A stretch of DNA of 64,000 bases, taken from Escherichia coli (lineage in GTDB: Bacteria > Pseudomonadota > Gammaproteobacteria > Enterobacterales > Enterobacteriaceae). Shown one piece after another: positions 25,692 through 56,948 of this stretch. Both the position numbers and the translations under genes were made by a program. How positions within the stretch are numbered: position 1 is the stretch's first letter; every line of letters starts with the position of its first letter. The notes beneath the pieces are model-generated. The model ran no database searches and was not told the origin of the DNA. It saw only the letters and a list, made by a program, of their open reading frames with translations. Where the stretch lies: assembly GCF_003019035.1 (NCBI RefSeq), contig NZ_CP027447.1. One strand, given 5' to 3'.

Positions 25692-26204
25692 TCAATTCCT
25701 TTGTAAATCCAGCAAATCATCAATGCCAGTTTCACTTGCGGTATAAAAACTATCGGACTGAAAAACACACGGGCGACCTTGCTGATTAAAGGTCATCAGA
25801 ATCAAAAACGCGTTAGGTGCCAGACCATTTCCTGAAATACCCCGCCAGATAACCAGATCCTGAATGCCGTTACGATCAAGATCGGCACGGTAAAGTTGCG
25901 CATTACCCGCCATATTTTGCAGCACCCCCACAGGCACAGACCAGGATTTACCGGCGCGATCTTTACCGTTCAATTGCCATTCACTATCATCATTTGGCAT
26001 CTTTTCAAGCGTCACGCCAGCAACGCCGACTTTTCTAAAATGCCAGGTTTGCTCGGCATCATAAGGCATGGTCAGGAGAGGTTTCAGCGCCCGCTTTTGC
26101 GCGTATTCGCTGTCACTCATCGGCAGATATTCGGTAAAGCTGGTGGCCTGTGCAGGCAGCACTAAGCTCAATAAAAAAGCGCACATCCCTGTTCTGATGT
26201 TCAA
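25692..26204 (-). CDS. secreted hypothetical protein, 170 aa (signal peptide ...LSLVLPAQA), between invertase and hycI
   Basis: Signal-peptide-like N-terminus; TTG at 26204 or ATG at 26186 as start. No family recognised. Confidence 0.5.
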   Translation of the reverse strand: MNIRTGMCAFLLSLVLPAQATSFTEYLPMSDSEYAQKRALKPLLTMPYDAEQTWHFRKVGVAGVTLEKMPNDDSEWQLNGKDRAGKSWSVPVGVLQNMAGNAQLYRADLDRNGIQDLVIWRGISGNGLAPNAFLILMTFNQQGRPCVFQSDSFYTASETGIDDLLDLQRN

Positions 26205-45551: not shown

Positions 45552-46460
45552 ATGAAAACGGGATCTGAGTTTCATGTCGGTATCGTTGGCTTAGGGTCAA
45601 TGGGAATGGGAGCAGCACTGTCATGTGTCCGCGCAGGTCTTTCTACCTGGGGCGCAGACCTGAACAGCAATGCCTGCGCTACGTTGAAAGAGGCAGGTGC
45701 TTGCGGGGTTTCTGATAACGCCGCGACGTTTGCCGAAAAACTGGACGCTCTGCTGGTGCTGGTGGTCAATGCGGCCCAGGTTAAACAGGTGCTGTTTGGT
45801 GAAACAGGCGTTACACAACATCTGAAACCCGGTACGGCAGTAATGGTTTCTTCCACTATCGCTAGTGCTGATGCGCAAGAAATTGCTACCGCTCTGGCTG
45901 GATTCGATCTGGAAATGCTGGATGCGCCAGTTTCTGGTGGTGCAGTAAAAGCCGCTAACGGTGAAATGACTGTCATGGCCTCCGGTAGCGATATTGCCTT
46001 TGAACGACTGGCACCCGTGCTGGAAGCCGTTGCCGGAAAAGTTTATCGCATAGGTGCAGAACCGGGACCAGGTTCGACCGTAAAAATTATTCACCAGTTG
46101 TTAGCGGGCGTACATATTGCTGCCGGAGCCGAAGCGATGGCACTTGCAGCCCGTGCGGGGATCCCGCTGGATGTGATGTATGACGTCGTGACCAATGCCG
46201 CCGGAAATTCCTGGATGTTCGAAAACCGGATGCGTCATGTGGTGGATGGCGATTACACCCCGCATTCAGCCGTCGATATTTTTGTTAAGGATCTTGGTCT
46301 GGTTGCCGATACAGCCAAAGCCCTGCACTTCCCGCTGCCATTGGCCTCAACAGCATTGAATATGTTCACCAGCGCCAGTAACGCGGGTTACGGGAAAGAA
46401 GACGATAGCGCAGTTATCAAGATTTTCTCTGGCATCACTCTACCGGGAGCGAAATCATGA
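45552..46460 (+). CDS. ygbJ: L-threonate dehydrogenase (3-hydroxyisobutyrate dehydrogenase family)
   Basis: Recognised sequence; NAD-binding GLGSMG. Confidence 0.9.
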   Translation: MKTGSEFHVGIVGLGSMGMGAALSCVRAGLSTWGADLNSNACATLKEAGACGVSDNAATFAEKLDALLVLVVNAAQVKQVLFGETGVTQHLKPGTAVMVSSTIASADAQEIATALAGFDLEMLDAPVSGGAVKAANGEMTVMASGSDIAFERLAPVLEAVAGKVYRIGAEPGPGSTVKIIHQLLAGVHIAAGAEAMALAARAGIPLDVMYDVVTNAAGNSWMFENRMRHVVDGDYTPHSAVDIFVKDLGLVADTAKALHFPLPLASTALNMFTSASNAGYGKEDDSAVIKIFSGITLPGAKS

Positions 46461-50873: not shown

Positions 50874-52325
50874 TTATTGACGTGCGGCCAGCATAGCGGT
50901 CAGTTTTTCAGCCCAGGCTTTGGTTTCCGGTAAATCCACCACCGGCTGACTGTAGTGACCGCGGTTGTCCGGGGCGACAGGCGTGGTGGCGTCGATAATC
51001 AGCTTGTCGGTGATCCCCGCCGGGCTTGAGCCTGGGTCGAGTTCCAGCACGGACATATTCGGCAACTGCACCAAATCCCCTGCCGGGTTCACTTTCGAGG
51101 AGAGCGCCCACATCACCTGCGGCAGGTTGAACGGATCAACGTCTTCATCGACCATAATCACCATCTTCACATAGCCCAGACCGTGCGGCGTGGTCATCGC
51201 ACGGAGGCCCACCGCGCGGGCAAAGCCACCGTAGCGTTTTTTGGTGGAGATAATCGCCAGCAGGCCGTGGGTGTACATGGCGTTTACCGCCTGCACTTCC
51301 GGGAACTCGGCTTTCAGTTGCTGATACAGCGGCACGCAGGTGGCTGGCCCCATCAGGTAGTCGATTTCCGTCCACGGCATCCCGAGATAGAGCGATTCAA
51401 AAATGGGTTTGCTGCGATAAGAGACGTTATCGATGCGCACCACGGTCATGTTGCGCCCGCCGGAGTAGTGCCCGGTAAACTCACCGAACGGCCCTTCGAT
51501 TTCACGTTTACGGCTTTCGATGACACCTTCGAGGATCACTTCTGAACCCCACGGCACATCAAAACCAGTCAGCGGGGCGGTGGCGATCGGGTACGGGCTT
51601 TCACGCAGCGCGCCTGCCATTTCGTACTCGGACTGATCATATTTCAGCGGCGTGGCCCCCATCAGCGTGATGATCGGATCGTTACCGAGGGTGATCGCAA
51701 TCGGCAGATCTTCACCGCGCTCTTCCGCTTTATGCAGATGCAGGGCGATATCGTGCATCGGCACCGGTTGCAGGCCGAGCTTACGTTTGCCCTTCACTTC
51801 CATGCGGTAGATACCGACGTTCTGCTTGCCGAAGTTATCCGGATCAAGCGGATCGCGGGAAACCACGCACGCTTTGTCGAGATAGAAACCGCCATCGCCA
51901 TCGTTTAAACGAAACAGCGGCAGGATATCGAACAGGTTGATCTCGTCTCCATCGACGGTGTTCTGCGCCCAGGCTGGATTGGCTCGGCGTTCCGGGGCAA
52001 TCGGGAAGTTGTCCCAGCGGCGGATAAACTCATCGATCTGTTTTTTAACCGGGGTATTTGGCGGCAGGCCGAGGGAAATCGCGTGGTTCTGCCAGGAACC
52101 GATGGTGTTCATCGCCACGCGGGCATCGGTAAAGCCGCGAATATTATCAAACCACAGCGCTGGCGCGCCGTCGCCGATACGCCCGGTGGCGTTGGCTGCG
52201 GCTGCCAGATCCGGTTCTGCGTTCACCTCTTCGCTGATTTTCAGCAATTGCCCATGGTCGTCGAGCGCCCTACCAGGCCATCGGCGTAACCGGCACGGAT
52301 ACCGGCGAGCGTTTTCATACTGCAC
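50874..52325 (-). CDS. UbiD-family decarboxylase (EcdC/YclC-like); homology begins ~ALDDHGQ, N-terminal ~20 codons of the ORF derive from out-of-frame upstream sequence
   Basis: UbiD-like sequence through most of the ORF; N-terminus disrupted by the junction near 52270. Confidence 0.7.
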   Translation of the reverse strand: MQYENARRYPCRLRRWPGRALDDHGQLLKISEEVNAEPDLAAAANATGRIGDGAPALWFDNIRGFTDARVAMNTIGSWQNHAISLGLPPNTPVKKQIDEFIRRWDNFPIAPERRANPAWAQNTVDGDEINLFDILPLFRLNDGDGGFYLDKACVVSRDPLDPDNFGKQNVGIYRMEVKGKRKLGLQPVPMHDIALHLHKAEERGEDLPIAITLGNDPIITLMGATPLKYDQSEYEMAGALRESPYPIATAPLTGFDVPWGSEVILEGVIESRKREIEGPFGEFTGHYSGGRNMTVVRIDNVSYRSKPIFESLYLGMPWTEIDYLMGPATCVPLYQQLKAEFPEVQAVNAMYTHGLLAIISTKKRYGGFARAVGLRAMTTPHGLGYVKMVIMVDEDVDPFNLPQVMWALSSKVNPAGDLVQLPNMSVLELDPGSSPAGITDKLIIDATTPVAPDNRGHYSQPVVDLPETKAWAEKLTAMLAARQ

Positions 52326-52579
52326 GGAATAACGATCATGCCGTCGGTACGAAAGGAACCTGAGGAGATGGTCGCCGCCTGATCCGCCGAGTTATGGCTG
52401 AAGTCTGCGAGGGCAGCAACATCGCGAGCGCTGTAAGGCGTTTCCAGTTCAATGGTGGTTTTCGCCCACGTCGACATCACCAGATGAGTCTCGACATTCG
52501 GCATCTCCCGCAGCGCTTGCAGTAATGCCACACCAAGAGGCGCACCGGTAGCCCCTGTCATCCCGACGATCAGTTTCAT
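52241..52579 (-). pseudogene. truncated UbiX-like flavin prenyltransferase (EcdB/Pad1-like): 105 aa of ~190 retained, C-terminal half missing
   Basis: N-terminal UbiX homology up to GYADGLVGR then STTMGNC-stop; no UbiX C-terminal coding sequence in any frame downstream. Confidence 0.65.
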
Positions 52580-52725: not shown

Positions 52726-53133
52726 ATGGCGTTACGAAATAAAGCGTTCCATCAGTTACGACAGCTTTTTCAGCAGCATACGGCCCGCTGGCAGCACGAG
52801 TTACCTGACCTGACCAAACCACAGTACGCGGTGATGCGCGCCATTGCTGATAAGCCTGGTATCGAACAGGTGGCACTGATAGAAGCAGCAGTCAGCACCA
52901 AAGCAACGCTGGCAGAAATGTTGGCAAGAATGGAAAATCGTGGCTTAGTCAGACGTGAACATGACGCCGCTGATAAGCGGCGACGCTTTGTCTGGCTGAC
53001 TGCCGAAGGAGAAAAGGTACTTGCTGCGGCGATACCGATTGGCGACAGTGTGGATGAGGAATTTTTGGGGCGTTTGAGTGGAGAAGAGCAGGAGCTGTTT
53101 ATGCAGCTGGTGCGCAAGATGATGAGCAAATAG
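52726..53133 (+). CDS. MarR/SlyA-family transcriptional regulator, 135 aa
   Basis: MarR-like winged-helix region; divergent from the ecd-like cluster. Confidence 0.7.
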   Translation: MALRNKAFHQLRQLFQQHTARWQHELPDLTKPQYAVMRAIADKPGIEQVALIEAAVSTKATLAEMLARMENRGLVRREHDAADKRRRFVWLTAEGEKVLAAAIPIGDSVDEEFLGRLSGEEQELFMQLVRKMMSK

Positions 53134-53252
53134 GATGTTGATTGCCGGATGGGACGCTGACGTGTCTTATCCAGGCGACAAAACACACCGACTCCCAAAT
53201 AAAAGAAAAAGGCCAGCCTCGCTTGAGACTGGCCTTTCTGACAGATGCTTAC

Positions 53253-54245
53253 TTATTCGCGGAACAGCGCTTCGATATTCAGCCCCTGCGTTTGCAGGAT
53301 TTCGCGCAAACGGCGCAGGCCTTCAACCTGAATCTGGCGAACACGTTCACGGGTGAGGCCAATTTCACGACCTACATCTTCCAGTGTTGCCGCTTCGTAC
53401 CCCAGCAAACCGAATCGACGTGCCAGTACTTCACGCTGTTTGGCGTTCAGCTCGAACAGCCATTTGACGATGCTCTGCTTCATATCGTCATCTTGCGTGG
53501 TATCTTCCGGACCGTTCTCTTTTTCATCGGCCAGGATGTCCAGCAACGCTTTTTCGGAATCACCACCCAGCGGGGTGTCTACCGAGGTAATGCGCTCGTT
53601 AAGACGAAGCATACGGCTGACGTCATCAACTGGCTTATCCAGTTGCTCTGCGATCTCTTCCGCACTTGGTTCATGGTCCAGTTTATGGGACAACTCGCGT
53701 GCGGTTCGCAGGTAAACGTTCAGCTCCTTTACGATGTGAATCGGCAAACGAATAGTACGGGTTTGGTTCATAATCGCCCGTTCGATCGTCTGGCGAATCC
53801 ACCAGGTTGCGTATGTTGAGAAGCGGAAACCACGTTCCGGGTCAAACTTCTCTACCGCGCGGATCAGCCCCAGGTTGCCCTCTTCGATAAGATCCAGCAA
53901 AGCCAGACCACGATTGCCATAACGGCGGGCAATTTTTACCACCAGGCGCAAGTTACTCTCGATCATCCGGCGGCGAGAGGCAACATCTCCACGCAGTGCG
54001 CGACGCGCAAAATAAACTTCTTCTTCGGCCGTTAACAGTGGTGAATAACCAATCTCACCAAGGTAAAGCTGAGTCGCGTCCAGCACACGCTGTGTGGCTC
54101 CCTGCGATAACAGTTCCTCTTCGGCCAAATCGTTATCACTGGGTTCCTCTTCTACTAAGGCCTTTTCGTCAAAAACCTCAACTCCGTTCTCATCAAATTC
54201 CGCATCTTCATTTAAATCATGAACTTTCAGCGTATTCTGACTCAT
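53253..54245 (-). CDS. rpoS: RNA polymerase sigma factor RpoS (sigma-38), full length, Glu at codon 33
   Basis: Recognised sequence starting MSQNTLKV; ORF track extends 12 codons upstream. Confidence 0.95.
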
Positions 54246-54307
54246 AAGGTGGCTCCTACCCGTGATCCCTTGACGGAACATTCAAGCAAAAGCCTGGTTC
54301 CGCCGAT

Positions 54308-55447
54308 TTATCGCTGCGGCAAATAACGCAGCGGGTTTACGGATTTCCCCTTGTAACGAATTTCAAAATGCAAGCGTGTTGAACTGGTTCCGGTGCTACC
54401 CATGGTTGCTATTTTTTGCCCCGCCTTCACTTCTTGTTGTTCCCGGACCAGCATTGTGTCGTTATGGGCGTAGGCACTCAGGTAATCATCATTATGTTTG
54501 ATGATAATCAGATTACCGTAGCCGCGCAGCGCGTTACCGGCATAAACAACGCGGCCATCTGCAGTCGCGATAATTGCCTGTCCTTTGCTGCCTGCGATAT
54601 CAATCCCCTTGTTGCCCCCCTCAGAAGCGCCAAAGGTTTCGATCACTTTGCCCTCAGTCGGCCAGCGCCAGGTGGAGATAGGCGTACTGGTTGATGTACT
54701 GCTGACAGTCGGCTCGGTTGTGCTTGCTGTTGGTACCGTTACAGGCGCTGTGACCGTGGTCGCAGTTGGCTTGTTGTTCGGCAACATTTTGTTAGCACTC
54801 TGTTCACCCGAAGACTCAGAATACGTAATTGTCGGTTGCGACGCAACAGCAACGGTGGAATTTTGTGCAGGCTTGATCACAACTCCTTGCTCTGCTGCGT
54901 CGGCCTGGGTAATGGCATTTCCGCCAGTGATTGGCGTACCGGAAGCATTCCCCACCTGTAAGGTCTGACCGACGTTCAGCGCGTATGGTGCCTGAATATT
55001 GTTGCGCTGAGCAAGGTCACGGAAATCGTTGCCAGTAATCCAGGCGATATAGAAAAGTGTGTCGCCTTTTTTCACTGTATAGGTACTGCCGCTATAACTG
55101 CCTTTCGGAATGTTCCCATACTGACGGTTATAGACGATGCGTCCGTTTTCCATCTGTACCGGCTGCTGAGCTACTGGCTGCACCGGCTGGATTTGCGGTT
55201 GTTGAGTGGCCTGAATTTGTGGCTGCTGTACCGGCTGAATTTGCGGTTGCTGCGCTGTAGACGTCGTCCCCATTTTCGGCGGCGGCGTAATCAACATACC
55301 AGAATTGGTATTTGCAGGCGCATTGCCATTAACGGAGCTGACCGGGGCCGGTGGATTTGAAGTGTCAGAACAGCCTGCCAGCCATAGCGAAACCAGTGAC
55401 AAAGCCGCAATGCGGCGAACGGTGAATTTTGGGCTTCCCGCGCTCAT
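54308..55447 (-). CDS. nlpD: murein hydrolase activator lipoprotein NlpD (LysM + M23 domain)
   Basis: Lipobox LAGC, Gln/Pro-rich repeats, recognised sequence. Confidence 0.9.

Positions 55448-55586: not shown

Positions 55587-56948
<1,362 letters not shown>

Follow-up and report, generated by a model that had tools for sequence, protein, structure and literature searches.

A full-length rpoS gene with glutamate at codon 33, very probably the ordinary wild-type allele of a non-K-12 Escherichia coli

The rpoS gene lies on the minus strand of the window (the whole stretch of Escherichia coli DNA that was analysed, 64,000 nucleotides), where pcm, nlpD and rpoS follow one another in that order on the same strand, in agreement with the annotations of strains SCU-301 and MG1655; rpoS has this place throughout E. 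coli. The 993 nt read from 54245 down to 53253 were translated into 330 residues with one stop, at the end. The original prediction had placed the gene on the same 993 nt, which proved to be the RefSeq-annotated rpoS CDS on the minus strand, and its description of a full-length frame with no internal stop was borne out by the translation. The coordinates of rpoS and of the features around it are collected in Table 1.

Table 1. Positions of rpoS, its expression signals and neighbouring features in the window
Feature	Position	Strand	Basis
rpoS CDS, 330 codons + TAA	53253..54245	(-)	translation, HMM, Pfam, DNA identity to SCU-301
Codon 33, GAG (Glu)	54147..54149	(-)	read directly; 'ctc' on the plus strand
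Shine-Dalgarno AGGAG, 7 nt upstream of ATG	54253..54257	(-)	read from sequence; same as K-12
Leader segment -91 to -124 with UUCGUUACA motif	54336..54369	(-)	read from sequence; same as K-12
rpoS 5' untranslated leader, 567 nt, mostly within nlpD	54246..54812	(-)	length from literature on the main rpoS promoter
rpoS intrinsic terminator, 15-pair stem then T-run, beginning 14 nt past the stop	53206..53239	(-)	terminator scan
nlpD, 379-aa ORF upstream of rpoS, containing the rpoS leader and promoter	54308..55447	(-)	ORF list; SCU-301/MG1655 annotation
pcm	55587-56213	same strand as rpoS	ORF list
ORFs affected by the 315-bp deletion	52241-52579 and 50874-52325	(-)	

The translated protein was compared with profile models of the sigma factors. 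It scored 604.6 bits against NF004207, the NCBIfam equivalog for RpoS (cut-off 394), with positions 1-329 of the 329 in the model covered, and 480.7 against the RpoS equivalog model TIGR02394 (cut-off 378.7). When the RpoD and RpoH models were used, every score fell under its cut-off. The Pfam families PF00140, PF04542, PF04539 and PF04545 passed their gathering scores, so that sigma-70 regions 1.2, 2, 3 and 4 are all present. Lys173, known as the residue by which sigma-S selects its promoters and is recognised by RssB, is present in the protein of the window and was invariant across the alignment.

An in-frame ATG at 54281, located 36 nt upstream of the rpoS start, opens a longer ORF of 342 aa. 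This ORF was tried as the true protein and was rejected, as no support for that start was found. By comparison, the start at 54245 has AGGAG 7 nt upstream, matches the RpoS model from its first position, and is the RefSeq start in SCU-301, in an ST648 strain and in MG1655. On the opposite strand, two ORFs were also seen over rpoS, at 53142-53819 (+, 225 aa) and 53353-53715 (+, 120 aa); both probably stay open only by chance, facing a conserved gene.

The rpoS gene and its flanks were aligned with those of K-12 MG1655, and the alignment ran ungapped from -1300 (upstream of the ATG) to +1039, that is, to 46 nt beyond the stop, with zero indels. Since no indel was observed, rpoS is without a frameshift, and the original reading of the frame withstood the alignment that had been proposed as its check. 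Within the 567 nt upstream of rpoS, only four substitutions relative to K-12 were found, at -318, -294, -183 and -162, all of them silent in nlpD, as the protein encoded in the window is 100% identical to NlpD of K-12. The stretch from -161 to -1, which includes the ribosome-binding site as well as the UUCGUUACA segment, showed no difference from K-12, and the same held for the region of the rpoS promoter (-704 to -319). The UUCGUUACA segment is presumably where the activating small RNAs DsrA, RprA and ArcZ pair; likewise, the main rpoS leader is taken to be 567 nt long, as published, and its promoter to lie inside nlpD. A consensus promoter scan of 53050-55000 returned no sigma-70-like site; the scan was a crude one, and K-12 does not differ from the window in that sequence. 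Given that the scan gave no match, the location of the promoter rests on identity to K-12. No family was found in an Rfam scan of the whole 64-kb window at gathering thresholds, the rpoS leader included, and no tRNA genes were found across the 64 kb.

Downstream of the gene, homology to K-12 ends at 53207, which is 46 nt past the rpoS stop and just beyond the strong intrinsic terminator. It is here that the variable rpoS-mutS region, which is well known, begins. From 53207 leftwards to ~50600, a MarR-family regulator (52726-53133, plus strand) and the decarboxylase BCD genes lie between rpoS and ygbN, and this block is one form of the known variable region. Compared with SCU-301, and with every other close genome among those listed, 315 bp were absent at 52265-52269, and the deletion was flanked by two 5-bp GGCGC repeats. 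It cuts subunit B of the hydroxyarylic-acid decarboxylase (UbiX-like) after ~105 residues, with loss of the 3' half, and also takes the start and the first ~10 codons of subunit C (UbiD-like). The decarboxylase operon beside rpoS is probably dead. As a single piece, the deletion junction was present in none of 5,426 complete E. coli genomes.

The part of the window from 1 to 25694 is the late part (lysis, head, tail) of a Mu-like prophage. The relative nearest to it, a prophage of strain 12089 (97.5% identity), carries DUF3486, terminase, DUF935 portal, minor head, virion morphogenesis, DUF1320 and Gp37-family genes and then P2-type tail genes, and it is the head genes of this relative that are Mu-type. 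Among the matches listed from complete genomes, none was a full-length match of >98% identity to the prophage part. At its end at 25694 the prophage reads ...GCGCGGCGCATCA (...GCATCA), and it interrupts what is in SCU-301 a hypothetical gene downstream of hycI; SCU-301 itself has no prophage at this site and has other DNA beyond hycI. From 25695 to 64000, the window differs from SCU-301 by one base and the 315-bp deletion. With the prophage and this deletion, the window does not come from SCU-301 itself. The sole substitution is located at position 45813, in ltnD (L-threonate dehydrogenase), with A in the window and G in SCU-301.

To place the gene among reference alleles, rpoS was compared by megablast with 5,426 complete E. 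coli genomes, in 5,414 of which it was found. DNA identity reached 100% in SCU-301 only, and the next best genomes showed 99.9%. The RefSeq protein accession of the identical gene in SCU-301 is WP_000081550.1, an accession shared by RpoS of the ST648 strain and of O157:H7 EDL933, and no difference was observed at the protein level between it and RpoS of the window. All three strains have the gene order nlpD-rpoS-MarR regulator, as in the window. At the DNA level, the ST648 strain differs by 1 synonymous base, codon 100 being CGC in the window and CGT in that strain. At least 1000 contigs carry exactly this protein, which is named 'MULTISPECIES RpoS [Enterobacteriaceae]'.

Relative to K-12 MG1655, rpoS of the window showed 11 substitutions and 0 indels, and 10 of the substitutions are synonymous. 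RpoS of MG1655 (NP_417221.1) also has 330 aa, and 329/330 residues are the same, the sole change being Q33 in K-12 versus E33 in the window. Solved holoenzyme structures, 6KJ6 among them, contain the Q33 sequence of K-12. The amber-33 allele of K-12 (W3110, EMG2, WG1, J53 and BLR(DE3)) concerns the same polymorphic codon of the same gene, but with TAG, whereas the window is without a stop. As the original prediction had it, codon 33 is Glu (GAG), neither the amber nor the Gln codon, which in MG1655 is CAG. The window therefore has neither of the codons that mark the K-12 laboratory allele (CAG or TAG); it has the GAG of the wild-type E33 allele, and all other residues agree with the common E. 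coli sequence.

The distribution of codon 33 was surveyed with 61-nt probes centred on the codon, whose exact matches were counted in the 5,426 complete E. coli genomes. GAG (Glu) was matched exactly in 4,818 genomes, and the examples listed were natural isolates of many lineages. CAG (Gln) was matched in 173 genomes, with MG1655, named K-12 laboratory strains and further genomes of ~4.6 Mb among those listed, and TAG (amber) was matched in 121, with W3110, EMG2, WG1, J53, NCM3722, S17-1 and BLR(DE3) listed. E33 is the majority allele, carried by about 9 in 10 sequenced E. coli (4,818/5,426 exact contexts), a count that leaves unclassified ~300 genomes with other differences inside the probe and 12 without a match. 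Among the matches listed, the carriers of CAG or TAG were nearly all K-12 laboratory strains or genomes of K-12 size (~4.6 Mb). In the alignment, RpoS of E. albertii and of Leclercia also has E33, and Glu is therefore the ancestral state.

The polymorphism at rpoS codon 33 was already known, with descriptions going back at least to 2002, and the allele of the window is the commonest one. GAG has been reported as usual in natural non-K-12 isolates (PMC2700278, citing Atlung et al. 2002 and Subbarayan & Sarkar 2004), and 33E was found in all isolates examined in another study (PMC1852560). In BLR(DE3), the rpoS region came from K-12, and the nonsense mutation at codon 33 lowers sigma-S activity (PMC5454202). 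The 'codon 33' of PMC11148124 concerns lacZ only.

By itself, E33 excludes only the two K-12 alleles (Q33 and amber-33). It is found species-wide, also in non-K-12 laboratory strains, and alone it is not diagnostic of a natural isolate. A laboratory origin, either from a non-K-12 laboratory lineage or from a K-12 stock with GAG, could accordingly be put forward, the more so as codon 33 of K-12 stocks has been recorded as TAG, CAG, TAT or GAG, with Glu in some strains (PMC2700278). The flanking DNA makes such an origin scarcely credible: the part of the window outside the prophage is nearly identical to that of a natural isolate, SCU-301, which is a human commensal from a rectal swab of a healthy student; the MarR-family regulator and the hydroxyarylic-acid decarboxylase genes beside rpoS are absent in K-12; and rpoS itself carries 10 synonymous differences from the K-12 gene. 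The original remark that the locus is consistent with a natural isolate holds because the flanks match a human commensal isolate and carry genes absent from K-12, codon 33 being weak evidence as a species-wide allele.

The natural-isolate reading leaves the matter of whether the sigma factor is active. The gene had been described as apparently functional, and the intact ORF, together with a protein accession shared with EDL933, whose RpoS is active (PMC2700278), speaks for that description as far as sequence can. Wild-type EDL933 is positive for catalase HPII and can be told apart in phenotype from its rpoS deletion mutant and from its spontaneous rpoS mutants (PMC2700278). Given this activity and the common accession, this exact protein is known to be active, and identity to EDL933 RpoS suggests that sigma-S would be active in the strain of the window as well. 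An intact rpoS may nevertheless sit in a strain that is low in sigma-S, attenuated through changes elsewhere, such as in rssB, crl, hfq, the activating small RNAs or ppGpp levels. Sigma-S activities vary among isolates that are all 33E (PMC1852560), RpoS expression or activity is variable among isolates (PMC7527412), and sigma-S levels depend on loci beyond the window (rssB, crl, hfq, dsrA, rprA, arcZ and the ira genes). Against this, there was no pointer to attenuation in the window, and known RpoS-positive strains have the same leader, ribosome-binding site and CDS, which makes attenuation decidedly improbable here. We consider it very likely, judging from the DNA, that rpoS of the window is an ordinary intact wild-type E33 gene of a non-K-12 E. 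coli, encoding full-length sigma-S, the sigma factor of stationary phase and general stress.

As such a gene, rpoS would yield a sigma factor that displaces sigma-70 on core RNA polymerase, leading to transcription of the general stress regulon. The control of its synthesis would be as in K-12, from a promoter within nlpD, and the long leader would keep the ribosome-binding site masked as long as no small RNA has opened it. Turnover of sigma-S would run via proteolysis by RssB/ClpXP, also as in K-12. It is unlikely that Glu33 in place of Gln33, in the acidic N-terminal tail before region 1.2, alters the stability or activity of sigma-S, or that expression is affected by the CGC at codon 100, a synonymous codon private to the lineage. 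If the effect of E33 versus Q33 were true, knowledge of RpoS based on K-12, including the Q33 structures, would slightly misrepresent the natural protein.

The finding adds nothing to the biology of RpoS and has housekeeping value only. Inactivation of rpoS during laboratory storage is reportedly the subject of Bleibtreu et al. 2014, cited in PMC7527412. With an intact E33 rpoS, the strain has probably escaped the RpoS loss that often occurs in laboratory storage or under nutrient-limited selection, and sigma-S-dependent phenotypes of stress resistance, biofilm formation and virulence can be expected in it.
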